Source: an uncultured Gemmatimonadota bacterium
GTDB taxonomy: Bacteria; JAAXHH01
Length of the DNA: 64,000 nucleotides
NCBI GenBank assembly: GCA_951812955.1
Contig: OX638340.1
Location: 3,040,001 to 3,104,000, forward strand
Reading direction: 5' to 3'
Both the position numbers and the translations under genes were made by a program. Positions 36,521-53,256 of the stretch are shown piece after piece. How positions within the stretch are numbered: the first letter of the stretch is position 1; every line of letters starts with the position of its first letter. The notes under the pieces are model-generated. The model did no database searches. It worked only from the letters and a program-made list of their open reading frames with translations, and was not told the origin of the DNA.

Positions 36521-36547
36521 ACTCGGCGCACCCTTTTACGGGGCTTT

Positions 36548-36711: not shown

Positions 36712-36740
36712 TTGACATAACCGTCGGACCGCAATATAAT
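36712..36740 (+). promoter_or_regulatory. perfect-consensus sigma70-type promoter: TTGACA (36712-36717), 17-nt spacer, TATAAT (36735-36740)
   Basis: Read directly: cTTGACAtaaccgtcggaccgcaaTATAATggcg. It is 57 nt upstream of the leader ORF and 326 nt upstream of trpE. Confidence 0.65.
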
Positions 36741-36796
36741 GGCGCAATTCTAACAGTGGGCAGTCGAACGTGTTCCTCATCAAACTCTGGAAAGAA

Positions 36797-36916
36797 ATGA
36801 CAGCCGTTTACTCCTCCCGGTCATCGCGATTCGATTATTGGCGGAAGCAGAGCGATCTGTTTACCTGGTGGCCTTTTTACGGGACGAGGCGGCATGTCAT
36901 GCGAAGCGGCGCCTGA
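36797..36916 (+). CDS. 39-codon leader peptide rich in aromatic codons (3 Trp incl. tandem TGG TGG, 3 Phe, 3 Tyr): MTAVYSSRSSRFDYWRKQSDLFTWWPFYGTRRHVMRSGA
   Basis: Manual translation. GGAAAG lies 4 nt upstream of the ATG. It is located between the consensus promoter and an intrinsic terminator upstream of trpE. Confidence 0.55.
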   Translation: MTAVYSSRSSRFDYWRKQSDLFTWWPFYGTRRHVMRSGA

Positions 36917-36948
36917 TTGAAGTAGATTCATCCTTCGTTGATTTGACC

Positions 36949-36982
36949 GGCCTCTACCCACACAAGGTAGCGGCCTTTTTTT
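36949..36982 (+). terminator. intrinsic terminator (attenuator) in the trp/aro leader
   Basis: GGCCTCTACC-cacacaa-GGTAGCGGCC (9/10 bp stem) followed by TTTTTTTGTTTTG, 84 nt before the trpE ATG. Confidence 0.6.
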
Positions 36983-37065
36983 GTTTTGTGCGGGCATGAT
37001 CGCGACAGGCCGCTCCAGGTAGAGGGAATCCCAGGCAACTTGTCACCACGTAAAGGTCTGTAACC

Positions 37066-38553
37066 ATGTACAGGACATCCTACGACACCTTTCTGGAGTA
37101 CAACGGCAAGCCCGATTTCCCCCTGGTGCCCATCTGGCACGAACGGGACCTGACAGATGAAACGCCCGAGGAAACCTTCCACCGGATCAGCGCGGGATAC
37201 CGGTACGCCTTCCTGTTGGAGAGTATGGAAGGCGATCAGAAAACGGCGCGGTATTCCTTCGTAGGCGCAGATCCCTTTGAGCGTATCGTCGGAACGAAAC
37301 AGGGGATCAACAGGATCAACGACCGGGGGGTGCTGACGCTGAAGGGCAACCCCATCGAGCTGATGCGGGAAATCATGAGGGAATACCGGACCCCGGTGCT
37401 CGAACACCTGCCCCGGTTCACGGGCGGCGCCGTGGGATACCTCGGTTACGACGTCGTTCGGCACTTCGAAGAAATTCCGGACGACAACCCGGACGACCTG
37501 ATGATGCCCGACCTGCACTTCATCGTGGCAGGGAAGATTGTGGTTTTCGACCACGCGCGCAAGCGCATGTACGTGATCGTCAATATGCTGTCCAATGCCA
37601 CGGATCCCGCATCGGCCTACCGGCAGGGCATGACCCAGGTAGACGACATGCTGAAACGGATCGACCGGCCACAGCCTCCAGTCGAGTCCTTCGATGAAGG
37701 CCCGACCATGGAGGCGGATCGGACCGTGTCCTCCAACATGACCCGGGACGAGTTCGAGGATACGGTGAGGACGGCCAAGGAATACATCGCCGCGGGGGAC
37801 ATCTACCAGGTGGTGCTGTCCCAGCGGTTCAGGATGGAAGCCGGCCGGGATCCCTTCGATGTGTACCGGGCGCTCGCGAGGCTGAATCCATCGCCCTACC
37901 TGTTTTACCTGCGGCTGGACGACGTGCATATTGTCGGCTCCTCGCCCGAGACGATGGTACTGGCCGAGAACCGCAGGGTGACGGTACGCCCTCTGGCCGG
38001 GACTTGCCGGCGGGGCGCGGACGAGGCGGAAGACCGGCTGTTGATCGAAGAGATGCTGAATGATCCCAAGGAACGGGCGGAACATGTGATGCTGGTGGAC
38101 CTGGGCCGAAACGATATCGGCCGCATCTGCGAATACGGTACGGTTCGAACGTCGGAACTGATGGGCATAGAGCGGTATTCCCACGTGAGCCATATCGTAT
38201 CGAACGTGGAGGGACGCCTCCGGGAAGGCATCGATGGATTCGACGTGCTGGAGGCGACATTCCCGGCGGGGACCCTGTCCGGCGCACCCAAAATCCGGGC
38301 CATGGAAATCATCGACGAACAGGAGACCACCCGGCGCGGCGTGTACGGCGGGGCATTGGGGTATTTCGGTTTTTCGGACAACCTCGACCTGTGCATCACC
38401 ATTCGGACCATGGTTATCAAGGACGGCCAGGCCTACATCCAGGCGGGCGCCGGCATCGTCGCGGACTCGGATCCCGGAAAAGAATACGAGGAATGCTGGA
38501 AGAAGGCCGAGGCGCTGCTGCGGGCGCTGAAGGAAGCCGAGGTGGTTTCATGA
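37066..38553 (+). CDS. trpE: anthranilate synthase component I
   Basis: 495 aa chorismate-binding enzyme; [31 protein letters not shown]. Confidence 0.95.
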
Positions 38554-39131
38554 TCCTGGTCATCGACAACTACGATTCTTTCACGTACAACCTCGTTCAG
38601 TACCTCGGGGAACTGGGTCAGCAGGTCACCGTGCGCCGTAACGACCGGATTACCCTTCCGGAGATCGAGGCCCTCGACCCGGACCACCTGGTCCTCTCTC
38701 CCGGGCCTTGCACCCCTGATGAAGCGGGCGTTTCCGTCGACGCGGTCCGTCGTTTCTCAGGCCGGCTGCCCATCCTGGGCGTATGCCTGGGACACCAGTC
38801 CATTGCCCAGGCCTACGGAGGACGGATCGTTCGCGCGTCGAAGCCCGTTCACGGCAAGACCTCCTCGATTGCCCACGATGGCGAATCCATCTTCAACCGG
38901 TTGCCGAATCCCTTCACCGCGACGCGTTACCACTCGCTGATCGTGGAAAAGGAAACACTGCCCGGATGCCTGGAAGTGACCGCGCGATCGGAGGACGGCC
39001 TGATCATGGGGTTGAGGCATGGTTCCCTGCCCGTTTACGGTGTACAGTTTCACCCGGAGTCCATACTGACCGAAGTAGGCAGACAGCTGTTGCGGAATTT
39101 CGTGGAGTCGAAGGCGTATGAACCAGCCTGA
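38550..39131 (+). CDS. trpG: anthranilate synthase component II (glutamine amidotransferase)
   Basis: [23 protein letters not shown]...GVCLGHQ. The start is at internal Met54 of the ORF-track frame, forming an ATGA overlap with the trpE stop. Confidence 0.9.
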
Positions 39132-39308
39132 TGTCATCCTGACCGGCATCAAGCCGACGGTCGGTCCGCTCATCGGCAACTATGCGGGCGCCGGCAGCAG
39201 GCGGGAGTCGGCAGGTACGGACATGGAGATCGCAAGGCAGGCGGTGGGAAGATAGCGGTGGAGATTTTGGTGTAAACGACTTATGCACCTCGATGGAGAC
39301 AGGCACCC

Positions 39309-40319
39309 ATGATACAGCAGGCGATAGCGAAGGCGATTGAAGGAATCTCGCTTTCCGAGGCGGAAGCCGTGGAGGTCATGAACGGGATCATGTCGGGCGA
39401 CGCGACGCCGGCGCAGATCGGCGCCTTCCTGATCGCCTTTCGACAGAAGGGCGAGACGATCGAAGAGGTCACCGGGTTTGCCCGGGTCATGCGGGCCAGG
39501 GCCACGCGGATAGACTGCCGCGCATACCCTATCGTGGATACCTGCGGCACGGGCGGCGACGGCAAGCATACGTTCAACATATCGACGGCGGCGGCCTTCG
39601 TGGCCGCGGCCGCGGGTGCCTTTATCGCCAAGCACGGGGGGCGCGCGGCATCCAGCAAGGCGGGCAGCGCCGACGTACTGACGGCCCTGGGCGTGAATAT
39701 CGAGACGCCGCCGGAGAAGGTGTCGGCATGCATCGACGAAATCGGCATCGGCTTCATGTTCGCCCCGGCCCTCCATTCCGCCATGCGATTCGCCAGCGGC
39801 CCGCGGCGGGAACTCGGCGTGCGGACGGTGCTCAACCTGCTGGGACCGTTGACCAATCCGGCCGGAACCACGGCCCAGGTCATGGGCGTATACGATGGAA
39901 GCGTCGTCCAGACCGCGGCCCACGTGCTGAACAACCTGGGGGCGGAACGTGCTTTCGTGGTGCACAGCGAAGACGGGTTGGACGAGATCGCGACCACGGC
40001 GCCGACCCACGTGGCGGAAGCCAGGGACGGCACCGTAAGGAGCTACGATATCGCGCCGGAAGACTTCGGTCTGCCACGGGCTTCCATCGAAGACCTCAAA
40101 GGTGGCGAAGCGGACGAGAACGCCGGGATCATCCGGTCCCTGCTTGAAGGGGAAACCGGCCCGAGAAGGGACATCGTCCTGCTGAACGCCGCGGCGGCGA
40201 TCGTCGCCGGAGGAAAGGCGGAGGATTTCAACGAGGGCATCACCCTGGCGGCCCGAGCGATCGATACCGGCGCGGCTAGGGAGAAACTGGACGCGTTGAT
40301 CAGGATGACGAACGCGTAA
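39309..40319 (+). CDS. trpD: anthranilate phosphoribosyltransferase
   Basis: 336 aa; DTCGTGGDGKHTFNISTAAAFVAAAAG. Confidence 0.95.
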   Translation: MIQQAIAKAIEGISLSEAEAVEVMNGIMSGDATPAQIGAFLIAFRQKGETIEEVTGFARVMRARATRIDCRAYPIVDTCGTGGDGKHTFNISTAAAFVAAAAGAFIAKHGGRAASSKAGSADVLTALGVNIETPPEKVSACIDEIGIGFMFAPALHSAMRFASGPRRELGVRTVLNLLGPLTNPAGTTAQVMGVYDGSVVQTAAHVLNNLGAERAFVVHSEDGLDEIATTAPTHVAEARDGTVRSYDIAPEDFGLPRASIEDLKGGEADENAGIIRSLLEGETGPRRDIVLLNAAAAIVAGGKAEDFNEGITLAARAIDTGAAREKLDALIRMTNA

Positions 40320-40360
40320 GTGCCTGGTACCGGCGGAGGCGGGAGTACGACGGGGAAAAC

Positions 40361-41170
40361 ATGGCAGCCATGAATATCCTGGACCAGATAGTAGCGCACA
40401 AATTCGACGAAATAGAAGACCGGAAGCGCCGTAGGCCGTTGCCTCGCGCTGAGCCCGGACGCCGGTCCGACGTGCGGCCGTTTGACCTTGCGCTGAAACA
40501 GGGGCACGGCATCTGCGTCATCGCCGAATTCAAGAAGGCTTCGCCGTCGAAGGGCGCGATACGTCCGGATGCCGTGCCCTCGGAGATCGGGCCGGTCTAC
40601 GCGGCTCACGGCGCCTCGGCCATTTCGGTGCTGACGGACCGGCGGTTCTTCCAGGGATGTGACGAGGACCTGGCGGCGCTTCGCGGGAGTGTGCCGGTAC
40701 CCGTGCTGCGAAAGGAATTCATCGTAGACGAATACCAGGTCCACGAGACGGCGGCCATGGGCGCGGACGCCATGCTGCTGATCGCGGCGGTACTGGACGA
40801 TGGCCGTCTGGCGGCACTGCGGCAGGCCGCGGCGGTATACGGCCTGCACTGCCTGGTGGAAGTACACGACGACGAGGAGTTGGACCGGGCCATGGAAGCC
40901 GGCAGCCGAATCATCGGCATCAACAACCGGGATCTGACGGATTTCACCGTTTCGCTGGATACTTCACTGAGACTGAGGCGGCGCATTCCCGATGGGATCG
41001 TGACCGTCAGCGAGAGCGGGATCCATACGCGTGAGGACGTCCTTATCCTGGAGCAGGCTGGATTCGACGCCGTACTCGTGGGCGAGTCCCTGATGGCGGC
41101 GGACGGGATCGGCGAACAACTGGACGCCCTGCTGGGCCGGGCACCCGTGCGAACAGGCGGCGGGGCCTGA
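40361..41170 (+). CDS. trpC: indole-3-glycerol phosphate synthase
   Basis: 269 aa; ICVIAEFKKASPSKG...LLIAAVL. Confidence 0.95.
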   Translation: MAAMNILDQIVAHKFDEIEDRKRRRPLPRAEPGRRSDVRPFDLALKQGHGICVIAEFKKASPSKGAIRPDAVPSEIGPVYAAHGASAISVLTDRRFFQGCDEDLAALRGSVPVPVLRKEFIVDEYQVHETAAMGADAMLLIAAVLDDGRLAALRQAAAVYGLHCLVEVHDDEELDRAMEAGSRIIGINNRDLTDFTVSLDTSLRLRRRIPDGIVTVSESGIHTREDVLILEQAGFDAVLVGESLMAADGIGEQLDALLGRAPVRTGGGA

Positions 41171-41193
41171 AAGATCTCCCCGCGGACAGGATT

Positions 41194-41805
41194 ATGAACA
41201 CGGTCAAGATCAAGATTTGCGGCATCACGAATGAAGCGGACGCCTCCGCGGCGGTCCACGCGGGCGCGGACGCGCTGGGTTTCATTTTTTACGGTGGCAG
41301 CCCCCGGTACGTCGAGCCGGAGCAGGTCGCGGACATCGTGGGCGGCCTGCCGCCTTTCGTCGTGCCGGTAGGCGTTTTCGTGAACGCGTCGGTGGACGAA
41401 GTCGACGAAGTCTGCGAGAACACGGGGATCCAGGTCGCACAGCTCCATGGCGATGAATCGCCGGATTTTTGCACCAACGTGGGCCGGCCCGTCGTCAAGG
41501 CCCTTCGCGTCAGGGACGCGTCCTGGAAATCCGATGCCGCGGCCTATGCCGTCGGCGCGGTGCTGCTCGATACGTACGCCGAAGACCGGTATGGCGGTAC
41601 AGGGGTTGTGTTCGACTGGCGGCTCGTGGAAGGCAGCCCCCACCGCGTCATTCTGAGCGGCGGGCTGAACCCGATGAACGTGGCCGAGGCCGTGCGGAGC
41701 GTGCGTCCCTACGGTGTGGACACGGGGAGCGGTGTGGAGCGGGAGCCGGGCCGCAAGGATCACGGAAAGATCCGGGCCTTCGTGGAGGCCGCGAGGGGGG
41801 CGTAA
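41194..41805 (+). CDS. trpF: phosphoribosylanthranilate isomerase
   Basis: 203 aa; MNTVKIKICGITNEADASAAVHAGADALGFIF. Confidence 0.9.
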   Translation: MNTVKIKICGITNEADASAAVHAGADALGFIFYGGSPRYVEPEQVADIVGGLPPFVVPVGVFVNASVDEVDEVCENTGIQVAQLHGDESPDFCTNVGRPVVKALRVRDASWKSDAAAYAVGAVLLDTYAEDRYGGTGVVFDWRLVEGSPHRVILSGGLNPMNVAEAVRSVRPYGVDTGSGVEREPGRKDHGKIRAFVEAARGA

Positions 41806-42698
41806 TGAACACGCTGGACGAGGACGGGTCCCGGGGACTTTCTATTTCCGGTTCGACCCGCGTGGTCGGCGTATGCGGCCGGGGCATCGGTTACACCCTT
41901 TCGCCGGCCATGCACAACGCCGCCTTTCGGCATTGCGGACTGGACTACGTGTATGTAACCTTCGAAATCGCGGCGGCCGCCGTTCGACAGGCGGTAGACG
42001 GGATCCGGGGACTCGGGCTGGCGGGCGTAAACGTGACCAAGCCGCTCAAGACGGACGTACTGCCCTACCTGGACGAGGTGTCCGACGAGGCCCGAAGGAT
42101 CGGGTCGGTCAATACCATCGTCAACCGCTCGGGCCGGCTCGCCGGCGCTTCGACGGACGGCGCCGGACTACTGCGGGCACTCAGCGGAAAGGGTGTCACC
42201 GTCGAGGATTCGAGGGTGGTTATCCTGGGTGCCGGCGGTGCGGCCCGGGCGGCCTGCCATATGGCCAGGAGCGCGGGGGCGGGCTCGATTGCCATAGCCG
42301 CACGCGACGCGGCGCGCGCCGAAGACACCGCGGCGGTGGGAGGCGCATCGGCGGTTTCCCTGGCGCCGCGGGAACTGGGCGCCGCGATCGGGAGCGCCGA
42401 TCTGGTCATCAACGCGATCCCCGCGGACCTGCCCCTGGATGAAGACTGGTTCAATGCGGGACAATTTGTCTACGAAACGCGTTACGACCAGGAGGAGACA
42501 GGACTTATGCGTAACGCCCGGTCCCGGGGCGCGGGCGCGTTGAACGGCATCGATATGCTGCTGTTTCAAGGTGCTGAGTCGTTTGAGATCTGGACCGGAC
42601 GGCAGGCTCCGGTCGAAGTGATGAGAAGCGCCCTGGAAGATCAGTTGCGGCGCCGGGTAGACCAGGATGGGGCTGGTCATCCGGGACGTCCGACATAG
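41805..42698 (+). CDS. aroE: shikimate dehydrogenase
   Basis: Start at internal Met113 of ORF 41469..42698 (MNTLDEDGSRG...). TAATG overlap with the trpF stop. VGVCGRGIGYTLSPAMHNAAF and LGAGGAARAA Rossmann motifs. Confidence 0.85.
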   Translation: MNTLDEDGSRGLSISGSTRVVGVCGRGIGYTLSPAMHNAAFRHCGLDYVYVTFEIAAAAVRQAVDGIRGLGLAGVNVTKPLKTDVLPYLDEVSDEARRIGSVNTIVNRSGRLAGASTDGAGLLRALSGKGVTVEDSRVVILGAGGAARAACHMARSAGAGSIAIAARDAARAEDTAAVGGASAVSLAPRELGAAIGSADLVINAIPADLPLDEDWFNAGQFVYETRYDQEETGLMRNARSRGAGALNGIDMLLFQGAESFEIWTGRQAPVEVMRSALEDQLRRRVDQDGAGHPGRPT

Positions 42699-42801
42699 TG
42701 ATGGCGCTGAGGCCGGCGGCGCGGTTACATCGTCCGGCGGCGTACATATGCTTGACGGTCCGGGGCAGACCGGGCCGGGACCCTAGAAATCTGGAGACCG
42801 C

Positions 42802-43959
42802 ATGTTACGATACCTGACCGCAGGAGAATCTCACGGACCGGCGATATCGGCGATCCTCGAAGGGCTGCCCGCGGGGGTACCGGTCGCGGCGGAAGAGGTC
42901 AACCGCGACCTGAAACGGCGCCAGGGAGGATACGGACGAGGCCGGAGAATGCAGATCGAGACCGATACGATCGAAATCCGGGGCGGCGTCCGCCATGGAA
43001 AGACTATGGGCGGCCCGGTTTCCCTTGTGGTCCAGAACCAGGACTGGAAGAACTGGACGGACGTGATGTCGATCGAGGAGGCCGACGGTCCGGTGAGGCG
43101 CCGGGTGACGCGGCCCCGGCCGGGGCATGCCGACCTGGCGGGTGGCCTGAAGTACGACCGCCGCGACCTCCGGGACATCCTCGAGCGGGCCAGCGCCCGG
43201 GAAACGACCATGCGGGTTGCCGTCGGCGCAATCGCCCGCTCCCTGCTGGCGGAGTTCGGCATCCATGTACTCAGTCACGTCGTGCGGATCGGGCAGGTGG
43301 ACGCGGACGTGAGCGGACTGTCGAACGAACAGATCCTGGAACGGGCCGAGGCGTCGCCCGTGCGCTGCGCCGACGCGGACGCCGCGCAGAAGATGATCGG
43401 AGAAATCGACCGGGCAAAGTCCCTCAAGGACACGATCGGCGGAGTCTTCGAGGTCAAGGTGCTGAACGCGCCCCCCGGACTGGGCAGTCATGTGCAGTGG
43501 GACCGCAAGCTCGACGGACGACTCGCCCAGGCGGTCATGAGCATCCAGGCCGTGAAGGGGGTCGAGATCGGACTGGGCTTTGGCGTGTCCCGGGTGCTGG
43601 GTTCCGAGGTCCACGACGAGATCCACTATGGCGACGGCCGTTTTTACCGGGAAACGAACCGGGCCGGCGGCATCGAGGGCGGCATGACCGAAGGCGAGGA
43701 AATCGTGGTGCGCGGCGCCCTTAAGCCCATCGCGACCCTGATGCGCACCATCATGTCGGTGGATATCGAGACCAAGGAAGCCTTCGATTCCGCCAAGGAG
43801 CGTTCGGACGTCTGCACCGTACCCGCCGCCGGCGTGATCGGCGAAGCGGTGGTGGCCTTCGTCGTCGCCGACGCCATGCAGGAGAAATTCGGCGGCGACA
43901 GCCTGGAGGAGATGAAGCGGAACTACCAGGGCTACAAGGACCAGTTGGCCCGTTACTAG
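42802..43959 (+). CDS. aroC: chorismate synthase
   Basis: 385 aa; MLRYLTAGESHGPAISAILEGLPAG. Confidence 0.95.
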   Translation: MLRYLTAGESHGPAISAILEGLPAGVPVAAEEVNRDLKRRQGGYGRGRRMQIETDTIEIRGGVRHGKTMGGPVSLVVQNQDWKNWTDVMSIEEADGPVRRRVTRPRPGHADLAGGLKYDRRDLRDILERASARETTMRVAVGAIARSLLAEFGIHVLSHVVRIGQVDADVSGLSNEQILERAEASPVRCADADAAQKMIGEIDRAKSLKDTIGGVFEVKVLNAPPGLGSHVQWDRKLDGRLAQAVMSIQAVKGVEIGLGFGVSRVLGSEVHDEIHYGDGRFYRETNRAGGIEGGMTEGEEIVVRGALKPIATLMRTIMSVDIETKEAFDSAKERSDVCTVPAAGVIGEAVVAFVVADAMQEKFGGDSLEEMKRNYQGYKDQLARY

Positions 43960-43963
43960 CGGA

Positions 43964-45643
43964 TTGTCCGGAGCATTTACCGGCAGCGCGCGGCCTCGGA
44001 TATCACCGGTCGAGGCGATCACGACAGGCAGGCGGCACGTGGCGAAAACTGGACAGGAGAAAGCCGGCGGCATCGTCCTGATCGGTTTCATGGGCACCGG
44101 AAAGACGGCGGTGGGGCGGCGGCTCGCAGGCGCCCTCGGCCTGCCCTTCGTGGACACCGACACGCTGATAGAGGAGCAGGCCGCGACCAGTATTCCGGAT
44201 CTCTTCAGGACGCGGGGCGAGACGGGTTTCCGGGCAATCGAGAAGCAGGTCATTCGCAGCCTTGCCGACGGGGAGCGCCGGGTGATCGCCACCGGAGGCG
44301 GCGCCGTGCTCGATCCGGACAACTTCGACGTGCTCAGGTCCCTCGGTCCGGTTATTCACCTGAGCGCGCCGGCGCCGACTATCCTGGCGCGAACGAAAGG
44401 CGACGCCGGCGTGCGGCCCCTGCTGGCCGGGGACGACCCGCTGGAGCGGATCCGGTCGCTTCAACGGGTGCGTGCGCCGGTCTACGGCCGAGCGGACCAC
44501 GAAGTCGACACGTCACGGCATACCATAGACGAGACCGTGGAGATGGTCATGGCATGGACCGGAAACGGCGAGCGCGTGATCCGGGTAGAACTCGGGGACG
44601 ACAGCTACGATATCGTGATCGGATCCGGCTGTCTCGGACGCCTGGGCTCCTTGATGAGTTCCTTCGACCTGACCGATCGCGCACTGGTCGTAACCCACCC
44701 GGATATCGCCACGCTCTACGGGGAACGGGCTGCGGACTCCCTGCGTTCGGCCGGCTTCGAACCGGCCGTGATCGAGGTGCCGGCCGGAGAAGAACAGAAA
44801 TCGCTGCAATGGGCCGAGAAGCTATACGACGCGATGCTGTCCCATCGCATGGACCGCCGTTCCCCCGTCATCGCGCTGGGCGGCGGGGTGGCCGGGGACC
44901 TGGCCGGCTTCGCCGCGGCCACCTTCCTGCGCGGCATTCCATTCATACAGGCTCCTACTTCTCTCCTCGCCCAGGTGGACGCCAGCGTGGGGGGCAAGGT
45001 CGCCGTGGACCACCGTCGTGGGAAGAACCTGATCGGCGCCTTCTACCAGCCTCTGCTCGTACTGGCCAGCCTGGACACGCTAGACAGTCTGCCCGATCGG
45101 GAACTGCGCGCGGGCATGGCGGAAGTGATCAAGTATGGGGTCATTGCAGACGCCGGCCTTTTCACCTATATTGAGGGTCGCCTTGACGAGATACTCAGGC
45201 GCGAATACGGTGCGCTCGCCCATCTGGTGGCCCGGTCCTGCGAGATCAAGGCCGATGTCGTTGCCGGGGACGAGCGTGAGCAGGGTCGGCGGGCCATACT
45301 CAACTTCGGCCACACCATGGGGCATGCCATCGAGACGCAGACCGGCATGCTGCACGGAGAGGCCGTGGCGATCGGCATGGTCTACGCGGCCCGTGTCGCG
45401 AAACGCCTGGGCATGCTGGACGGCGACAGCGTGCAAAGGCTGATCGAGTTGGTGCGTCGAACGGGGTTGCCGGTGCGCTGCGACGGCCTTGACGCTTCGG
45501 CGACCCTCGAAACCATGAAGTTGGACAAGAAATCGGTCGGTGGCCGCATGCGTTTCATCCTGCCGGAGCGAATTGGCGCGGTGGTCATCCGGGACGACGT
45601 CCCCAATGATTATATCCGGTCGGTCTTGACCGCGGGAACCTGA
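43964..45643 (+). CDS. aroKB: bifunctional shikimate kinase / 3-dehydroquinate synthase (AroK-AroB fusion)
   Basis: 559 aa. N-terminal P-loop [19 protein letters not shown] (shikimate kinase); C-terminal DHQ-synthase motifs ([53 protein letters not shown]). Confidence 0.9.
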
Positions 45644-45676
45644 GTAGCGGCGCTACCAGGCAAAACGGAACGAAAC

Positions 45677-46123
45677 ATGAAATTACTCGTGTTGCACGGT
45701 CCGAATCTGAATATGCTGGGTGTCCGGGAACCGGAGGTCTACGGCAGAGATACGCTGGAAGACATCAACCGGTCCCTCGAGTCGGCCGCGGCGGACCAGG
45801 GAGTCGAGTTGCGCATTCGCCAGTCCAATCACGAAGGGGTGCTAGTGGACGAGATTCAGGAGGCCCTCGGGCGGGCGGAAGGCATCCTGATCAATCCCGG
45901 CGCGTACACGCATACGAGCATCGCCCTGCGCGACGCGATCGTCGCCGTGGGCCTGCCCGTCGTGGAGGTGCACCTGTCCGACATTCACGCCCGGGAGCAT
46001 TTCCGGCGCCATTCCTATATCGAGCCTGTGGCGCTCACGCAGATCTGCGGACATGGAAGCAGAAGTTACCTGCTGGGCCTGGAGGCCCTGGTCGATCATA
46101 TCAGGACGGGGAGCGAGGGATGA
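45677..46123 (+). CDS. aroQ: 3-dehydroquinate dehydratase, type II
   Basis: 148 aa; [23 protein letters not shown]. Confidence 0.9.
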
Positions 46124-47340
46124 CTGCCACCGCACTGCCTGACAAAAGAGGACACTTCGGGGTCTTCGGCGGCCGTTACGTCCCGGAAACGCTGATGACG
46201 GCCCTGGACGAACTCCTCGAGGTATATGAAGCGGCGACGCGGGATCCCGTCTTCGAGGATGAATTCCGCTACTTCCTGGCGGACTACGTGGGCCGGCCTT
46301 CCCCCCTTTACTTCGCGGAACGACTGACGGAGACCCTCGGCGGCGCCCGGATCTACCTCAAGCGGGAAGACCTGAACCACACGGGCGCCCACAAGATCAA
46401 TAACACCATCGGCCAGATCCTGCTGACCCGGCGCATGAATAAACCCCGGGTCATCGCCGAGACCGGAGCCGGCCAGCACGGCGTGGCCACGGCGACCGTG
46501 GCCGCCCGTTTCGGCCTGGAGTGCGACGTCTACATGGGGACCGAGGACATGGAACGCCAGGCGCTTAACGTCTTCCGCATGCGCCTGATGGGGAGCCGGG
46601 TCATCGGCGTCGACGCGGGCAGCCGCACGCTGAAGGACGCGCTGAACGAAGCCCTGCGCGACTGGGCGACCAACGTGCGGCATACCCATTACATCATCGG
46701 ATCGGTGGCGGGGCCCCATCCCTTCCCCTTGATGGTACGGGAATTCCAGTCGGTCATCGGCCGCGAAGCGCGCGGGCAGATCCTGGAGAAGGAAGGGCGG
46801 CTGCCGGATATGCTTGTCGCCTGCGTGGGGGGAGGCAGCAACGCCATCGGCCTCTTTCATCCTTTTCTAGACGACGAAGTGCAACTGGTCGGCGTGGAAG
46901 GGGCGGGGCACGGGCTCGACACCGGCCTGCACGCCGCGACGCTGGGCCAGGGCACGCCGGGCGTACTGCACGGCGCCATGAGCTATACGGGACAGGACGC
47001 AAATGGCCAGATCCAGGTCGCCCATTCCATCTCCGCCGGGCTGGACTATCCCGGTGTGGGACCCGAGCACAGCTACCTGAAGGACTCCGGCCGCGCGGAT
47101 TACGTCAGTGTGACCGATGACGAGGCGCTGGAGGCCTTCGAGCTGCTGTCCAGGGTCGAAGGCATCATACCCGCCCTGGAAAGCGCCCACGCCATCGGCC
47201 ATATCGCCCGGATCGCCCCGGGAATGGACCGGGATCAGATCATTGTCGCCGGGCTGTCGGGCCGCGGGGACAAGGATGTCGAGCAGGTATACGGATTCAT
47301 GGACCAGGAGCGGGTGGACCAGGAGCGGATGGAGGGCTGA
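46120..47340 (+). CDS. trpB: tryptophan synthase beta chain
   Basis: 406 aa; [18 protein letters not shown]-lysine motif. Confidence 0.95.
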
Positions 47341-48162
47341 ATGAACCGCATTGAAGAGACCTTCGCGACGCTTAAGTCTGCGGAACGGAAAGCGCTCGTC
47401 CCGTACATCATGGCGGGAGATCCGGACCTGGAAACGACCGCCGACCTGGTCGTGGAACTGGATCGCCGCGGCGCCGACCTGGTCGAACTGGGCGTTCCCT
47501 TCTCCGATCCCATCGCGGACGGCCCGACGATACAGCGCGCCGCGCTGCGGGCCCTGGATCAGGGCACGACCCTCCGGAACATCGTCGGTACGGTCGGATC
47601 CATCCGGGAGCGGTCGGACATACCAATCGTCCTGATGACCTATTACAACCCGGTACTCGCCTACGGTATCGAGGATCTTTGCCGAGATGCCGTCCGCACA
47701 GGTGTGGACGGTCTGATCGTACCCGACCTCCCGCCGGAAGAGGGCGGCGACCTGTCCGATGCCTGCCGGCGACATGGACTCACCGTCGTGTTCCTGGTGG
47801 CGCCCACGAGCACAAAGGCCCGGATCGAACTGGTGGGCCGCCACACCACGGGATTCGTATACTGCGTCTCCCTGACCGGCGTCACGGGCGCCCGGGGAAA
47901 GCTGGCGGACGGGGTGGACGAGTTTATGGCGCTGGTGCGGTCCCACACGGACCGGCCCCTTGGCCTGGGATTCGGCATTTCGTCGCCGGAACAGGCCAAT
48001 GAGGCCGCCCGGCTGGCCGACGGGGTCATCGTGGGCAGTGCCATAATCAACGTAATGGAAGAACACGCCGGCGAGCCGGATTTGATCCGGACCGTGGGCG
48101 AATACGTGGCTTCACTGAGAGCGGGCATAGACAGGAAGAACCCGGTGACCGCGCCGGGGTGA
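47341..48162 (+). CDS. trpA: tryptophan synthase alpha chain
   Basis: 273 aa; starts 1 nt after the trpB stop. Confidence 0.95.
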   Translation: MNRIEETFATLKSAERKALVPYIMAGDPDLETTADLVVELDRRGADLVELGVPFSDPIADGPTIQRAALRALDQGTTLRNIVGTVGSIRERSDIPIVLMTYYNPVLAYGIEDLCRDAVRTGVDGLIVPDLPPEEGGDLSDACRRHGLTVVFLVAPTSTKARIELVGRHTTGFVYCVSLTGVTGARGKLADGVDEFMALVRSHTDRPLGLGFGISSPEQANEAARLADGVIVGSAIINVMEEHAGEPDLIRTVGEYVASLRAGIDRKNPVTAPG

Positions 48163-48234
48163 TTTCGGGTAACGGGTTCGATGCCGGGGTAGCTTCTGGT
48201 GCCGGGTACGATGCCGTTTGCACAGGAATTGAAC

Positions 48235-48342
48235 ATGACAGCAGTTTCATCCAGCCAGGGAGATGCATGTGGGAGTCGAGGAGCCCGGTCGGGTCTCTGC
48301 GGCTCCCACGTATTCCAACCAACTTTTCAGGTATGTTTCTGA
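48235..48342 (+). CDS. candidate 35-codon small ORF MTAVSSSQGDACGSRGARSGLCGSHVFQPTFQVCF; its first 15 nt are nearly identical to the start of the trp leader ORF
   Basis: Manual translation. The 213-nt trpA-aroH spacer also holds a TGaTAGAAT extended -10-like element overlapping the ORF stop and a strong AGGAGG before aroH. Coding status unproven. Confidence 0.2.
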   Translation: MTAVSSSQGDACGSRGARSGLCGSHVFQPTFQVCF

Positions 48343-48375
48343 TAGAATCCAGCATTCCGCATTCCAGGAGGAACC

Positions 48376-48741
48376 ATGGTCCGGGGCGTTCGAGGCGCCA
48401 TAACCGTTGAACTGAACACCGCCGATGCCATTGGAGAAGCGTCCCGGCGACTGCTGTCGGCGATCGTCGACGCCAATCGCATCGAATTGGAGCAGATCGC
48501 CAGCGTCATCTTTTCCGCGACGAAGGATCTCGACGCCGAGACGCCCGCATTGGGAGCGCGCCAGATGGGATGGACGTCGATCCCCCTGTTCTGCACCCAG
48601 GAGATGGAAGTCCCAGACGGACTTGCCCGGTGCATCCGGGTTCTGATTCACGTAAACACGGTAAAACCACAGGATGAAATACGGCATGTTTACCTGAACG
48701 GAGCCGTAGTACTCAGGCCGGACATCGCCGAAGGAGGTTGA
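48376..48741 (+). CDS. aroH: monofunctional chorismate mutase, AroH class
   Basis: 121 aa; [13 protein letters not shown]-terminus, characteristic of B. subtilis-type AroH. Confidence 0.8.
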
Positions 48742-48742
48742 A

Positions 48743-49759
48743 ATGGTGGTCGTAATGAAGCCGCAGGCTTCGGAAGACCAGAAGGAGCATGTAAGGGATA
48801 CCATCCGTGCTTTCGGCTGCAAACCGCGTGACATTCAGGGTGACGCAATTACAATTATCTGTCTTATCGGCAATACACTGAGCCTTTCGCCCGAACAGTT
48901 TGAAATCCTTGACGGGGTGGACCGGGTTCAGCGCATTCAGCGGCCATACAAGCTCGTAAGCCGGGAAGTGCAGCCGCACAAGACCCAATTTCAGGTAGGC
49001 AACGTCACGATCGGCGGCGATGGGATTACCATCATAGCCGGTCCCTGTTCGGTCGAATCCTATGACCAGTTCGTGGAAGCGGCGCGGCACGCCCGGGCGG
49101 CCGGGGCCCACATCATCCGCGGCGGCGCGTTCAAGCCGCGGACTTCCCCCTACAGTTTCCAGGGGCTCGGCGAGGAAGGCCTGAAGATCATGGCCCGGGT
49201 CAGCGAGGAAACGGGACTGCCGACCATCTCGGAGGTGATGGAGCCGGAAATGGAACCGATGGTCTCCGAGTACGTGGACATGCTGCAGGTCGGCGCGCGC
49301 AATATGCAGAACTACCCGCTGTTGAACGCCGTGGGACAGAGTTCCAGGCCCGTCATGCTCAAGCGCGGCATGTCCGCCACGATCGAGGAGATGCTGCTGG
49401 CGGCAGAATACATCCTTGCGGGGGGAAACCACAACGTCGTTCTGTGCGAGCGGGGTATACGGACCTTCGAGACCTGGACGCGGAATACACTCGACATCTC
49501 GGCCGTGCCGGTGTTACAGAAATACACCCATCTGCCGGTCTTCATCGATCCGAGCCACGGAACCGGCAACGCGGATTTCGTGGGTCCGGCGTCCCGGGCG
49601 GCCGTTGCGGTCGGCGCGGACGGACTCATGATCGAGATGCATCCCAGACCCGAGCGCGCACTTTCGGACGGGGACCAGTCTCTGACTCCGGAAGCGTTTG
49701 CCTCGCTGATTCCGGAATTGCAGGCGGTCGCGACAGCCGTGAACCGCACCATAGACTGA
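48743..49759 (+). CDS. aroG: 3-deoxy-7-phosphoheptulonate (DAHP) synthase, type I-beta with N-terminal regulatory (ACT/FL-like) domain
   Basis: 338 aa; catalytic core GPCSVES...[13 protein letters not shown]...IDPSH preceded by an about 90-aa N-terminal domain. Confidence 0.9.
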
Positions 49760-49767
49760 GTTCGTTT

Positions 49768-50631
49768 ATGCGAGTCACCATCATCGGAGTCGGATTGCTG
49801 GGCGGTTCCTTCGGCATGGCGCTCCGCAAGTCGGGGGCGGCGGATCATGTCGCGGGCGTCGACCTGGACCGGGCAACGCTCGACCGGGCCATCGATCGCG
49901 GCGCGGTCGACGAGGGATTCCTCGACCTGGCCGAGGGGGTGGAAAGGGCCGACCTGGTCGTGCTCGCCACGCCGGTCCGGGCCATACTCGAGATGCTGCC
50001 GGGCCTGGCGTCGATTCTCGGTGCGGAGACCGTCCTCCTGGACCTGGGCAGCACCAAGGAGGCCATCGTTTCCACCGTCGCCAGTCAGGCCGGAATCAAA
50101 CGGTATGTCGGCGGACACCCCATGGCGGGAACCGAGCACGCCGGCATCGAACACGCCGATGCCCGGTTGCTGCAAGACGCGACTTTCGCCCTGGTCCCGC
50201 CTCCCGAGGTCGATGAAGGGGCTGTCGATCTGCTCACGGATCTCGTCCGCGGGATCGGCGCCTGTCCCGTCGTCATTCCCGCGGAACGCCACGACCGGAT
50301 CGTTTCCATAACCAGCCACCTCCCCTACCTGCTGTCCGTAGTGTTGGCGCTCGCCGCGGAAAACATGGCGCGCGAGGAAGACCGCCTGGGAGCGTTTGCG
50401 GCATCGGGATTTCGGGACACCACCCGTCTGGCCGCGTCCAACGTGCGCGTGATGGCCGACATTTGTCTGACGAACGGCCGGCCACTGCTCCGCGGCATCG
50501 AGGACGCCAGGCGGTTGCTGGACGACCTGGCGGCGCTGATCGAGGAGGGACGCGAGTCGGAACTGGTGAGGACGCTGACGACAGCGAAGGAAAGCAGGGC
50601 CTCGTTGTTGGAGGAGAGGAGAACCGATTGA
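49768..50631 (+). CDS. tyrA: prephenate/arogenate dehydrogenase
   Basis: MRVTIIGVGLLGGSFGMALRKSG Rossmann start at internal Met109 of ORF 49444..50631; 288 aa. Confidence 0.85.
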   Translation: MRVTIIGVGLLGGSFGMALRKSGAADHVAGVDLDRATLDRAIDRGAVDEGFLDLAEGVERADLVVLATPVRAILEMLPGLASILGAETVLLDLGSTKEAIVSTVASQAGIKRYVGGHPMAGTEHAGIEHADARLLQDATFALVPPPEVDEGAVDLLTDLVRGIGACPVVIPAERHDRIVSITSHLPYLLSVVLALAAENMAREEDRLGAFAASGFRDTTRLAASNVRVMADICLTNGRPLLRGIEDARRLLDDLAALIEEGRESELVRTLTTAKESRASLLEERRTD

Positions 50632-51470
50632 ACAAGTACAGGACCGGCTTCCAGGGCGAACTGGGCGCTTTCAGCGAAATGGCCGTGCAGGCATATTTCG
50701 GGGACGCGGCCGAACCGGTGCCACACGGGTGGTTCGACGACGTGTTCCGCGCCGTGGACGAAGGGCGGTGCGACTACGGGATGCTTCCGATCGAAAACAC
50801 CCTCGCGGGCAGCATCCACGTCAATTACGACCTGATGCAGGAGCACGACCAGCAAATCGTCGGCGAGATCGTGCTCCGGATCGTCCACAACCTGATGGCG
50901 AAACCGGGTGTCCGCCCGGAGGAACTCCGCCGGGTCCAGTCTCATCCCAAGGCGCTGGAACAGTGCGTCCGGTTTTTCCGGGAACATCCGTCGCTGAAGC
51001 CCGAAACTGTTTACGACACGGGCGGCGCGGCCAAGATGCTAGGTGAGGGAGAAGACCGGGACATCGGCGTGATCGCGAGTACCCGCGCCGCGGAGCGGTA
51101 CGGACTCGAGATCCTGGAGCACGGCATCGAAGACAACGTCCAGAACTATACGCGTTTCCTGGTCCTGGGCAGGGAGCCCGAACCACCTGTGGGCGAACGC
51201 CTTAAGACCTCCATCGTGTTCTCGATGCCCCACGAACCCGGCACGTTGTTCAAGGCCATGAGCGTATTCGCGCTGCGGGACATCTCCATCAACAAGATCG
51301 AATCGCGGCCCCTGGTCGGATCCCCCTGGGAGTACCTGTTCTACCTGGATTTCGAGGGACACGCCGACAGTCTGCTCTGCAAACGTGCGCTCAACCACCT
51401 CCAGGAGATCGCGACCAACTTCAAGCTGCTGGGATCCTACGCCGAGGGCAGCATCGTGGACCGGGTCTGA
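50628..51470 (+). CDS. pheA: prephenate dehydratase with C-terminal ACT domain
   Basis: PDT core (YRTGFQGELGAFSEMAVQAYFG) plus ACT (SIVFSMPHEPGTLFKAMSVFA). There is no in-frame ATG near the N-terminus; a TTG at 50628 overlaps the tyrA stop (TTGA) with GGAGGAGAGGAG upstream. Confidence 0.8.
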   Translation: MNKYRTGFQGELGAFSEMAVQAYFGDAAEPVPHGWFDDVFRAVDEGRCDYGMLPIENTLAGSIHVNYDLMQEHDQQIVGEIVLRIVHNLMAKPGVRPEELRRVQSHPKALEQCVRFFREHPSLKPETVYDTGGAAKMLGEGEDRDIGVIASTRAAERYGLEILEHGIEDNVQNYTRFLVLGREPEPPVGERLKTSIVFSMPHEPGTLFKAMSVFALRDISINKIESRPLVGSPWEYLFYLDFEGHADSLLCKRALNHLQEIATNFKLLGSYAEGSIVDRV

Positions 51471-51480
51471 AGGGAACGGA

Positions 51481-53256
51481 TCATCCACGGTCCGAAGCCC
51501 CCGGCTGATCGGCCTGCCTGAGTTCAAGCCTGGGTTCGACGAAAAGCGTTTTTTCGCGGGTAAACACAACCTGCCCGGGCGCGCCGTTTTTCATTTTCCT
51601 GACGTAACGGCGTTCCGTGTAGTCCACCGGCACGGTGGTGGACCCCCGGCCCTTGCTGAAGTAGGCCGTCAGGCAGGCCGCTTCGTACAGGGTCCTTTTA
51701 CTCGGCATCTGGGTCTTGTCCACCCTCCGCAGAATCACGTGGGAACCGCCGAGGTCCCGCGCATGGAGCCAGATGTCGTCCGGCGCCGCCGATTTTGTGA
51801 GCGCTTCGTTTTCCCGGCTGTTGCGGCCCACCAGCAGCAGGTGTCCGTTCGATGTCATGTACCTTCTCGGGTGTATGTCGCGTCCGGCCTGTTTGCGTGA
51901 ACGTTTCGTTGCGCCGGCCTTACGGGGCGCCTTGACGAGATCCAGTCTGATGCAGGCCCTGTGGGCATCCTCCAGCTTTTTTGCGTCCGCACCGCTATCC
52001 AGCTCCGCACGGATGCCCTCGACTACTTCCAGTCGTCTTCGAGCCTGGCCCAGGCGATGCGCCACCGCCTTCCGTCCGTCTCTGGCTTTCCGGGCCATGC
52101 GGAAATACCACCGGGCGTTTTCCGCCGGCGACAGCCCGGGCTTCAACGGTATGACAATTTCCTCCCGTTCATCGCTGAAATAGTCTTCGACCCGGGCTTC
52201 CGTCGACCCCGCTTTCAACCGGGCTATGTGAGACGTGATCAAGTCGCCGTACCTGCGGTATTCCTCTTCCCGCTCCACGTGATCCTGGTCGCGGGCAAGG
52301 TTCGCCGTCAAACGCTCCAGGCGCCGGATTTCATCCCGCAGGGCGCGTTGTACCGTCAGCAACCGTTGCTTCGAGGCTTCTTCCGCTTTCCGCTCTGCGT
52401 AGAAAGTTTCTACGGCGACGCTGATGGATTCGTAGTGCTCGACCTGCGCATCCGGAAGGGAGTGGACCGGGACCGCCGACAGCAACCGGACCCGGCCGTC
52501 ATGCGACCTGCCGAGACAGGGCGTCCAGTCCCTGGCCCGGACTCGGTCGACAAGTTCATGCAGGCTCTGCCAGACCCGGTCAGCGCGGCCGCCCGGGCCC
52601 CCGTCGGCAAAGCCTGCGGCATCCGACAGGCCGGCCCGGGCCAGCACTTCCATGGCCATATCCCTGGATAGTCCCGCGAACGTGGCGGACAAGTGACGCG
52701 CCAGGTCTACCGAAGTTTTCAGGTTGTCCATATCGTCCAGTAGTCTGCGCGTCGCATCCAAAAGCGGTGTTTTTTCCATCGGCGGAGGAAATAAGTAGGT
52801 CTCACCGGGTACCAGTGGCCTGTCGGCGCCCCGGATGCGCCTGAGGGTCTCTAGAATAACCCGGTCCGGCTCGGAAAGGAACACCATGATGCCCCGGTTC
52901 CCGATGAGTTCAGCGATCAGGCGATAGCGGCGGTGTTCCGGCGATGATCGTCCCTGGATGTGCAGGTCCACCACCCGTTCAAACGGCGCCACGACGATCT
53001 TTTCCAGTGTACCGGGAACGAGATGGTCGCGCAGCGCACCGAGCAGGGCGGAAGCAGCCTCGCTCTTCCGCGTTGAATCCGAAAGATGTGCCCGTGCGAA
53101 ACCCGGTTGCACGGAAAGGGAAAGCACCCGCCTGCCCGTGCTCGTCTTCAGGACGAGGCCGATTTCCATGGGCGCGTATTGGTCGATGGCCGCAATACGC
53201 GTCCCCTCCAGGAACCTGCACTCGTCTTTTACGGCCTGCAACGCCAGGGCATCCAT
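51481..53256 (-). CDS. rqcH: ribosome quality-control factor RqcH / FbpA (NFACT family)
   Basis: NFACT-N start MDALALQAVKDECRFLEGTRIAAIDQ at Met25 of the 615-aa ORF (the frame extends to 53328); coiled-coil middle region; C-terminal NFACT-R/DUF814 (DLGGSHVILRR...TVPVDYTERRYVRK). Confidence 0.8.
   Translation of the reverse strand: MDALALQAVKDECRFLEGTRIAAIDQYAPMEIGLVLKTSTGRRVLSLSVQPGFARAHLSDSTRKSEAASALLGALRDHLVPGTLEKIVVAPFERVVDLHIQGRSSPEHRRYRLIAELIGNRGIMVFLSEPDRVILETLRRIRGADRPLVPGETYLFPPPMEKTPLLDATRRLLDDMDNLKTSVDLARHLSATFAGLSRDMAMEVLARAGLSDAAGFADGGPGGRADRVWQSLHELVDRVRARDWTPCLGRSHDGRVRLLSAVPVHSLPDAQVEHYESISVAVETFYAERKAEEASKQRLLTVQRALRDEIRRLERLTANLARDQDHVEREEEYRRYGDLITSHIARLKAGSTEARVEDYFSDEREEIVIPLKPGLSPAENARWYFRMARKARDGRKAVAHRLGQARRRLEVVEGIRAELDSGADAKKLEDAHRACIRLDLVKAPRKAGATKRSRKQAGRDIHPRRYMTSNGHLLLVGRNSRENEALTKSAAPDDIWLHARDLGGSHVILRRVDKTQMPSKRTLYEAACLTAYFSKGRGSTTVPVDYTERRYVRKMKNGAPGQVVFTREKTLFVEPRLELRQADQPGASDRG

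Follow-up and report, generated by a model that had tools for sequence, protein, structure and literature searches.

How might a bacterium adjust a single row of genes to the supply of three different amino acids, when that row holds nearly the whole of aromatic amino-acid biosynthesis? The question is raised by a stretch of 64,000 nucleotides from an uncultured Gemmatimonadota bacterium (GenBank assembly GCA_951812955.1, contig OX638340.1, positions 3,040,001 to 3,104,000 of the forward strand; the whole stretch is called the window below, and coordinates count from its first letter). Direct reading of the sequence finds 15 plus-strand open reading frames (ORFs) at 37066-51470, in the order trpE-G-D-C-F-aroE-aroC-aroK::aroB-aroQ-trpB-A-aroH-DAHPS-tyrA-pheA, where DAHPS stands for DAHP synthase. 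By gene content this block is an aromatic amino-acid supraoperon of 15 genes and 16 activities, built as a trpEGDCFBA operon in which a shikimate block, aroE-aroC-aroK::aroB-aroQ, is nested between trpF and trpB, and to which aroH-DAHPS-tyrA-pheA is appended after trpA. The most informative feature of the locus is the control region at 36712-36989, which the original prediction for this DNA, made by a model from the letters alone, had missed. From the features of this region we consider it likely, at a probability of roughly 70%, that the supraoperon is governed from one sigma-70 promoter by ribosome-mediated, multivalent transcription attenuation.

The control region opens with a sigma-70-type promoter (Table 1) that is the only 12/12 match found in 16 kb by a consensus scan, and TTGAC(A/T/G)...TATA(A/T)T is kept upstream of the leader in L001, L002, L082, L083, L161-L163, L165 and L166, the L numbers being our handles for other genome loci. 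Downstream of the promoter lies a short leader ORF containing the codon cluster F-T-W-W-P-F-Y, and this leader is the sole ORF with at least 23% aromatic residues among the 296 small ORFs (25-60 codons) of the window. The layout of promoter, leader and terminator/antiterminator was found in all 11 distinct relatives compared. Each of these 11 distinct orthologous regions holds an ORF of 32-47 codons with 2-4 Trp, 3-9 Phe and 2-3 Tyr codons, so that aromatic residues make up 18-38% of the leaders against 6-12% in the small-ORF background. The rest of the peptide diverges, and a W-x-x-F-Y-G block is retained in most leaders. Among close relatives, the changes inside the leader ORF include synonymous ones (TTT/TTC, TAC/TAT and GAT/GAC).

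The leader is followed, 32 nt after its stop codon, by an intrinsic terminator hairpin in which all 99 of 99 base-pair cells across 11 sequences hold standard pairs, with one compensatory exchange of G-C for A-U and with loops that vary. The leader/terminator motif (GCCTCTACC-N3-10-GGTRG) occurs once per locus, always directly ahead of the first trp gene, which is trpE except in L166, where it is trpD. Since the fold energy of the whole leader is ordinary (z = +0.37) and thus uninformative when taken alone, a competing structure had to be sought by comparative analysis. Folding the RNA that is free while a ribosome waits at the last Trp codon and the terminator 3' arm is still unmade predicts that the GAGGC box and leader codons R31-S37 pair with a segment that includes GCCUC of the terminator 5' arm. 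Such an antiterminator helix is predicted in all 11 sequences: GCCUC(U) pairs with a conserved (A/U)GAGGC box that lies immediately downstream of the aromatic codons, and the leader codons after the box pair with the segment upstream of the terminator 5' arm. In an independent MAFFT alignment 83.7% of the cells of this helix are paired, compared with 31-52% after a shift of the partner strand by 1-3 columns, and four pairs carry compensatory changes on both sides. We regard this support for an alternative antiterminator pairing as moderate, not decisive. An anti-antiterminator, in which segment 1 (the start of the leader ORF) would pair with GGGACGAGGCGGCAUGUCAU in the GAGGC region when the RNA is untranslated, is uncertain. 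As a side observation, the window at 37009-37030, downstream of the terminator, contains GGCCGCU and GGUAGAGG, complementary to the terminator 3' arm (AGCGGCC) and 5' arm (CCUCUACC), respectively; this complementarity is conserved in L001, L002 and partly L082, and the terminator arms could refold with it in read-through transcripts.

These elements suggest the following scheme. Transcription would start from the strong promoter and the 39-codon leader, with its Trp, Phe and Tyr codons concentrated in F-T-W-W-P-F-Y, would be translated. A shortage of charged tRNA-Trp, tRNA-Phe or tRNA-Tyr would stall the ribosome at this cluster and leave the GAGGC box and the codons following it (36886-36906) free to pair with 36933-36954, whereupon the antiterminator would occupy the terminator 5' arm and RNA polymerase would read into trpE. 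When all three charged tRNAs are plentiful, the ribosome would reach the stop codon and cover the 5' strand of the antiterminator, the terminator (36949-36982) would form, and transcription would end before trpE. The last 9-10 leader codons form that 5' strand, and the UGA that ends the L163 and L167 leaders shares nucleotides with the (U)GAGGC box. From this geometry it follows that a ribosome finishing the leader would remove the antiterminator, and one stalled 6-18 codons earlier would not. On this reading the leader would be translated and would respond to each of the three amino acids.

The identity of the genes behind this switch is clear. The expected Pfam family is found for 15 of the 15 ORFs, at E-values of 1e-15 to 1e-118, and NCBIfam agrees, with the qualification that every NCBIfam match of tyrA falls below its cut-off. 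The gene order, strand and coordinates of the original prediction were thereby borne out, and so were the two absences it had noted. An EPSP synthase query finds no aroA in the cluster, in the whole 64-kb window or in any locus of the clade; the same query detects aroA, at 28-32% identity, in six loci of other phyla (L014, L022, L023, L024, L078 and L087). After pheA there is no aminotransferase gene, the next gene (51481-53328) being a convergent NFACT gene.

The arrangement is also conserved. An identical 15-gene order is found in L001, L002 and L003 (80-92% identity) and in L161 (68% for AroKB), of which L001 and L003 additionally carry trpS; the L003 contig begins inside trpS, and its trpE and trpG are out of view. 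The same order is seen, as far as the DNA reaches, in L081, L083, L085, L168, L169 and L170. A sister group, L162-L167 (58-67% AroKB identity), keeps trpEGDCF-aroE-aroC-aroKB-aroQ-trpBA and, where the contig extends, has an ornithine cyclodeaminase gene between trpA and aroH and keeps aroH-DAHPS; it is without tyrA-pheA, the one exception being L164, with a prephenate dehydratase gene some 900 nt past DAHPS. The cyclodeaminase is of the nickel-pincer-nucleotide (NPN)-dependent kind (TIGR00300, 536 bits) and lies at 14132-15361 in L162 and also in L163, L164, L165 and L166; in this sister clade an ABC-F gene replaces tyrA-pheA after the DAHPS gene. Proteins with over 90% identity carry the label 'MAG: Gemmatimonadetes/Gemmatimonadota bacterium' (MAG, metagenome-assembled genome), and more distant members are labelled Latescibacteria or Zixibacteria. 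Since the gene order recurs in more than 12 independent assemblies, chance adjacency is not a sensible explanation, and the original view of a genuine trp/aro/phe/tyr block with many overlapping or abutting junctions stands, its order being conserved down to 58% AroKB identity.

Conservation extends to the divergent genes upstream, namely DUF624, tmk and a phosphatase or phosphatase/acetyltransferase, with AP endonuclease and aspS where the DNA reaches. The divergent DUF624-tmk promoter (36530-36700, minus strand) stands back to back with the trp promoter; it has a -35 element TTGCGA (plus-strand TCGCAA, 36684-36689) and an A-rich upstream element, and the plus-strand motif GCAACTGTTTTCTT is kept in all relatives. 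In the window, the 5' untranslated region contains two tandem GC-rich repeats of about 40 nt (GGTTCGC(A/G)AAGCC...CAAAGGCCGGC), of which L001 has similar copies.

Steps in the evolution of the operon can be read clearly from the relatives: an aro block entered a trp operon, trpS was gained and lost, trpEG disappeared while the leader stayed, and control switched between T-box and leader peptide. In L166 (GCA_036337135.1, 5440-5575) trpE and trpG are deleted down to a 45-codon ORF, in which the N-terminus of TrpE is fused to the C-terminus of TrpG; the aromatic leader and the terminator are nonetheless retained, directly before trpD. L087 (TrpE 48%) has an uninterrupted trpEGDCFBA followed by aroH-DAHPS-tyrA-aroA, an arrangement that looks like the state before the shikimate block entered between trpF and trpB. 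The low-GC MAG L023 (320-20618) has a cluster of about 20 his, trp and aro genes with the same nested aro core, comprising hisC-B-H and further his genes, trpD-C, a CM_2 fusion, trpF-aroE-aroC-aroKB-aroQ-trpB-A, two DAHPS genes, aroA, trpE-G and hisD, and after the cluster an S-adenosylmethionine (SAM) riboswitch at 20742-20837.

Does one promoter serve all 15 genes? The junctions, read directly, are mostly overlapping or short, as had been predicted: 8 of the 14 overlap, abut or leave at most 33 nt, and all genes are co-directional. ATGA overlaps join trpE to trpG and aroQ to trpB, a TAATG overlap joins trpF to aroE, trpA abuts the trpB stop in TGAATG, and tyrA and pheA share a TTGA overlap on condition that pheA starts at the TTG at 50628. 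Five other junctions have spacers of 1, 8, 23, 33 and 41 nt, and the aroC-aroKB spacer is 79 nt if the fusion starts at the GTG at 44039. Translation may be coupled across such junctions. Only two larger gaps had been reported originally, but there are three: trpG-trpD (177 nt, 39132-39308), aroE-aroC (103 nt, 42699-42801; 3 to about 145 nt among relatives) and trpA-aroH (213 nt). A check of the first and last of these for internal promoters had been called for beforehand, and a sigma-70 consensus scan finds no promoter-like site in either; the single internal 10/12 match lies within the DAHPS gene. In L169 and L170 trpA and aroH are only 22-30 nt apart, and these tight junctions argue that the distal genes share one unit. 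The strong single promoter and attenuator upstream of trpE, the lack of promoter-like sites in the large gaps and the short trpA-aroH junctions of L169 and L170 together favour one transcription unit, and the whole block of about 15 kb is most likely transcribed as a single RNA.

The spacer between trpG and trpD, which the original prediction had offered as a possible promoter region, has another origin. An intact gene for tryptophanyl-tRNA synthetase (trpS; TIGR00233 and PRK12556 in L001, above cut-off) lies between trpG and trpD in L001 (4238-5245) and L003 (1-912), making a 16-gene block there. The window retains its first 25 codons, L081 likewise only the first 25, and L002 nothing. The length of the spacer ranges from 3 nt in L002 through 177 nt in the window and 296 nt in L081 to 1060 nt in L001. 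Because trpS is intact in relatives and a 25-codon remnant persists in the window and L081, the spacer reads as a deletion scar of trpS and not as a regulatory region, and an internal promoter in a relic that varies from 3 to 1060 nt was rejected.

The trpA-aroH spacer is less easily set aside, as it contains a long stem-loop whose outer stem of 9 bp is paired in 100% of cells in every sequence that has it. Compensatory variants occur in L163 and L168 (GUGGGCGCC/GGCGCCCAC and GUGGGCGUC/GGCGCCCAC). No U tract follows this stem-loop, it matches no Rfam family, and it is absent from L161, L169 and L170. In seven loci a small ORF runs across it in the same frame, with 2-3 Phe codons at its end; since the arm changes in L163 and L168 compensate in the RNA and alter the amino acids, RNA structure seems to be the primary constraint. 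The start of this ORF, MTAVSSS, resembles that of the main leader, MTAVYSS, but 23 of 500 shuffles score as high, and the DNA similarity is not significant. We considered a second leader-peptide attenuator in this gap and rejected it, as the 5' part of the ORF is not conserved and no terminator follows. The conventional guess would be an intercistronic stabiliser or a processing site.

It is with this stem-loop in mind that one could propose a cluster made of two or more transcription units, for example trpE...trpA and aroH-DAHPS-tyrA-pheA, with internal promoters and with the stem-loop marking a 3' end or processing site. So stable a structure, conserved and compensating within a 213-nt spacer, could attenuate or process the transcript, and the expression of the four distal genes may then be uncoupled. 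The additional spacers of 103 nt and 177 nt point the same way, weak promoters invisible to a consensus scan could hide in the 103-nt and 79-nt spacers, and the unrelated cyclodeaminase gene between trpA and aroH in L162-L166, together with the lack of tyrA and pheA there, gives the distal part the look of a separately evolving module. Against such a division stand the gaps free of promoter-like sites, the one 10/12 match being buried in DAHPS, and a stem-loop that is without a U tract, is missing from L161 and gives way in L169 and L170 to a mere 22-30 nt; the spacer of 177 nt represents a gene relic, of which 3 nt are left in L002, and the co-directional genes are for the most part tightly joined. 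We therefore regard a division into several units as possible but doubtful, and retain the single attenuated unit. One could also speculate, and we think this unlikely, that the leader is a true three-way attenuator in which each codon class independently relieves termination, and that the stem-loop with its small ORF (48235-48342) is an undescribed cis-regulatory element separately tuning the half of the block with the Phe/Tyr and DAHPS genes, for instance if translation of the ORF depended on its Phe codons and opened the stem-loop; if this were true, the entire pathway would answer to one RNA switch that sums up how well each of the three aromatic tRNAs is charged.

The attenuation model itself has to be weighed against a terminator regulated in some other way, by an RNA-binding protein, a small-molecule-sensing RNA or a TnaC-like arrest peptide sensing free tryptophan, with the aromatic codons incidental or part of an arrest motif. 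A number of observations do count against ribosome stalling as proposed. The Shine-Dalgarno sequence of the leader is weak (GGAAAG, and TGGACTG in relatives); the blocks CUGUUUACCUGG and UUUUUACGGG are conserved at the nucleotide level and UUUUUUACGGG persists across a frame change in L163, which together indicate some constraint on RNA and not on codons. For the antiterminator, covariation is modest, its score being reached by 24 of 500 shuffles, the test leans towards the structure, which was derived from the window sequence, and with a shuffled upstream segment the terminator arm still finds some partner in about 50% of shuffles; the anti-antiterminator pairing is clear only among close relatives. 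The leader RNA is also near invariant from CUGUUUACC to the terminator where proteins are 80-90% identical, in excess of the conservation of coding genes, and the motif W-[WR]-[PSF]-[FA]-[YT]-G, with Pro in many members, is conserved together with the basic residues following it. However, the enrichment in Trp, Phe and Tyr persists in leaders that are otherwise different (L162, L163, L165 and L167), which is the signature of regulatory codons, and the stop codon sits, with respect to the GAGGC box, where the ribosome model would have it. Rfam searches of the whole window at gathering scores, and of 36500-51600 with E values up to 10, return only tRNAs and three chance-level matches, leaving no T-box or other known family at the leader. 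Known trp and phe operon leader families were rejected, with no Rfam match in the window, L161 or L163; so was a T-box (RF00230), which has no match in the window and scores 98.4 bits in the positive control L087; and TRAP-type control was excluded on reading the sequence, as the leader has no array of (G/U)AG repeats. We consider regulation by such other means quite unlikely, and attenuation by a translating ribosome remains the preferred reading.

A further element of the block is the aroK::aroB fusion, with an N-terminal shikimate kinase and a C-terminal dehydroquinate synthase (DHQS) domain. Pfam places SKI (1-155 of 159), DHQ_synthase (2-114 of 115) and DHQS_C (1-144 of 144) in one frame, so that the domain check proposed with the original prediction comes out at full length for all three, and the Walker A motif GFMGTGKT is present. 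The single 559-aa ORF of that prediction proved to be a genuine single-ORF fusion, but its length is that of the maximal ORF, from the TTG at 43964. The database protein P0121, 100% identical and 534 aa long, starts at the GTG at 44039, and the lengths of its homologues cluster at 528-540 aa; the fusion protein is thus probably 534 aa long, with the N-terminal 25 codons of the longer ORF probably untranslated. An exact database look-up of the 559-aa ORF gave no match, which is explained by the later start of the database protein. Nor is the fusion unusual: across many phyla and independent assemblies, 119 of the 120 best homologue clusters consist of one protein, 516-570 aa long, that has both domains (the exception, P0163, is truncated to 406 aa and has DHQS domains only), the fusion occurs in at least 60 genome loci, and several sources name the homologues 'shikimate kinase / 3-dehydroquinate synthase'. 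The aroC-aroKB pair recurs in Selenomonadales, Syntrophomonadaceae, relatives of Desulfotomaculum, Nitrospirota, Armatimonadota, Poribacteria and others. Like the proteins of the bifunctional models NF010627 and NF010556, which join an N-terminal SKI to a C-terminal DHQS in about 530 aa, usually directly after aroC, the window protein aligns with these models end to end; it scores above the cut-off of TIGR01357 (aroB; 381 bits, cut-off 305) and does not reach their curated cut-offs (324 versus 565 bits and 250 versus 560 bits), and its sequence therefore places it in the same architecture but another branch or subfamily. By these comparisons the fusion is real, widespread and already named, and one polypeptide is predicted to carry both AroK and AroB activities. 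The Protein Data Bank holds no solved structure of the two-domain bacterial fusion, only separate domains and the eukaryotic AROM protein. That the ORF is an assembly or frameshift artefact joining genes that are truly separate has next to no probability, as beyond the general possibility and the probably untranslated first 25 codons nothing speaks for it, and the independently assembled fused homologues, the identical 534-aa protein, the named bifunctional families and the three full-length domains in one frame all speak against it.

Table 1 Features of the supraoperon and its control region in the window, followed by leader peptides of related loci
Feature	Position	Strand	Evidence or sequence
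Sigma-70-type promoter, TTGACA-17 nt-TATAAT	36712-36740	+	12/12 match, 57 nt upstream of leader ATG
Leader ORF, 39 codons + TGA (3 W, 3 F, 3 Y)	36797-36916	+	MTAVYSSRSSRFDYWRKQSDLFTWWPFYGTRRHVMRSGA; sequence; orthologues in 11 relatives
Regulatory codon cluster (F-T-W-W-P-F-Y)	36860-36880	+	TTT ACC TGG TGG CCT TTT TAC; sequence reading
Predicted antiterminator: 36886-36906 (GAGGC box + leader codons R31-S37) with 36933-36954, including terminator 5' arm GCCUC	36886-36954	+
Intrinsic terminator, stem 36949-36958 and 36966-36975, then U7-G-U4	36949-36989	+	GGCCUCUACC / GGUAGCGGCC
trpE, anthranilate synthase component I	37066-38553	+	Pfam PF00425 (Chorismate_bind) + PF04715 (Anth_synt_I_N)
trpG, glutamine amidotransferase component	38550-39131	+	Pfam PF00117 (GATase)
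trpS relic, first 25 codons	39118-39192	+	tblastn with intact L001 TrpS, 76% identity over residues 1-25
trpD, anthranilate phosphoribosyltransferase	39309-40319	+	Pfam PF00591 (Glycos_transf_3) + PF02885
trpC, indole-3-glycerol phosphate synthase	40361-41170	+	Pfam PF00218 (IGPS)
trpF, phosphoribosylanthranilate (PRA) isomerase	41194-41805	+	Pfam PF00697 (PRAI)
aroE, shikimate dehydrogenase	41805-42698	+	Pfam PF08501 (Shikimate_dh_N) + PF18317 (SDH_C); TIGR00507 above cut-off
aroC, chorismate synthase	42802-43959	+	Pfam PF01264 (Chorismate_synt)
aroK::aroB fusion, maximal ORF	43964-45643	+	Pfam PF01202 (SKI), PF01761 (DHQ_synthase), PF24621 (DHQS_C)
aroQ, type II 3-dehydroquinate dehydratase	45677-46123	+	Pfam PF01220 (DHquinase_II); TIGR01088
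trpB, tryptophan synthase beta	46120-47340	+	Pfam PF00291 (PALP); TIGR00263, 617 bits
trpA, tryptophan synthase alpha	47341-48162	+	Pfam PF00290 (Trp_syntA)
Long stem-loop, core 48269-48309, inside small ORF 48235-48342	48258-48320	+	GUGGGAGUC...GGCUCCCAC
aroH, monofunctional AroH-class chorismate mutase	48376-48741	+	Pfam PF07736 (CM_1); TIGR01796
DAHP synthase, class I-beta, with N-terminal ferredoxin-like regulatory domain	48743-49759	+	Pfam PF18152 (DAHP_snth_FXD) + PF00793 (DAHP_synth_1); NF006421 above cut-off
tyrA, prephenate or arogenate dehydrogenase	49768-50631	+	Pfam PF02153 (PDH_N) + PF20463 (PDH_C)
pheA, prephenate dehydratase with ACT domain	50628-51470	+	Pfam PF00800 (PDT) + PF01842 (ACT); NF008865 above cut-off
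L001 leader peptide			MTAVNSSRSSRFYYWRKQSDLFTWWPFYGTRRHVMRSGA
L082 leader peptide			MTVAYFPFSFMGSWQQNCLFTWRSAYGKRRKVMRSCEDK
L083 leader peptide			MTTVTYFPNSFMGYWRQSFLFTWRPFYGKRRDVKRSHEHE
L161 leader peptide			MITVNSSQSSRFNNMWYQGYLFSWWPFYGKRRKNMRSGT
L162 leader peptide			xNSTASHFPPYPFDRFQAWFWQAFPFSRWFFYGFMVRREVTRGTECG
L163 leader peptide			MTYALAPIASYRIQAWLWRVFPFTRWFFTGLR
L165 leader peptide			MSFMLPVFFSYSFRPFWQAFRFVWRPFYPAIARRDTTRS
L167 leader peptide			MPRVPAIFSPYGFRFWWRQAYLFAWWPFYGVK

Elsewhere the window carries a pair of 396-aa tuf (EF-Tu) genes with near-identical Pfam scores, at 13798-14988 and 29854-31044 (minus strand), one after fusA and the other after a tRNA cluster Thr-Tyr-Gly-Thr (31109-31571). 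The pair flanks rpoB (22643-26509) and rpoC (18323-22591), in the usual str and tufB-secE-nusG-rplKAJL-rpoBC neighbourhood.

How does this locus compare with known systems? Aromatic supraoperons are documented in Bacillus subtilis, Desulfovibrio vulgaris and Nostoc, with D. vulgaris listed among those apparently controlled by an attenuator (PMC1173090). The B. subtilis supraoperon (aroF-aroB-aroH-trpEDCFBA-hisC-tyrA-aroE) likewise unites trp, shikimate, aroH and tyrA genes in one co-directional unit with an attenuator before trpE. There, however, the trp operon sits inside an aro operon (PMC1173090), whereas in the window the aro block sits inside a trp operon; the organisation had been said to differ from that of B. 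subtilis, and the nesting is indeed the inverse. The B. subtilis attenuator uses the TRAP protein, for which the window leader is without the repeats, and the window adds DAHPS, aroE, aroC, aroK, aroQ and pheA and is without hisC (the aminotransferase) and aroA. The D. vulgaris supraoperon and the 'redundant' one of Nostoc/Anabaena also combine a complete or almost complete trp operon with genes of the Phe/Tyr branches and the common pathway. In D. vulgaris, however, aroA'-aroB'-aroQ.pheA-aroF-tyrA stands before an uninterrupted trp operon and an alternative dehydroquinate route is used, the Nostoc supraoperon is without trpC and most shikimate steps, and neither nests an aro block between trpF and trpB. 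Closer at hand, the operon of L087 resembles the distal part of the window in having aroH-DAHPS-tyrA in the same order after the trp operon; it is without the aroE-aroC-aroKB-aroQ insert, has aroA, and carries a T-box leader (RF00230, 9531-9833, 98.4 bits) in place of the leader peptide.

With respect to the control region, the closest parallels are trpL and pheL of Escherichia coli and trpL and aroR of Corynebacterium glutamicum, which share the sequence of a promoter, a short ORF rich in cognate codons, mutually exclusive antiterminator and terminator, and first structural gene; aroR has mixed Phe-Tyr-Phe codons before a DAHPS operon (PMC11802643). Compared with these, the window leader combines Trp, Phe and Tyr codons and would govern all three branches and the common pathway, it has no sequence or Rfam-model similarity to the trp and phe leader families, and its lineage differs (MAGs labelled Gemmatimonadota). 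In the enterobacterial ilvGMEDA, ilvBN and thr operons, one leader has codons for several end products and a shortage of any of them relieves termination. The principle is the same as that proposed here, but the pathways are those of the branched-chain amino acids and of Thr/Ile. Our reading of the literature turned up neither this gene arrangement nor an equivalent leader for all three aromatic amino acids, nor, for Gemmatimonadetes, an aromatic tri-codon leader. The new element would be the predicted tri-aromatic leader-peptide attenuator, which appears conserved across a clade of candidate-phylum level. Supraoperons, shikimate-pathway fusions and leader-peptide attenuation are each textbook matter, and nothing is overturned. 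The value lies in the combination, in a little-known uncultivated lineage, of nearly the whole three-branch pathway behind one switch that apparently reads all three end products. This offers a ready-made regulated module for the engineering of aromatic compounds, with 16 activities and without only aroA and the aminotransferase, and a natural, compact test case for multivalent attenuation beyond Proteobacteria and Actinobacteria.

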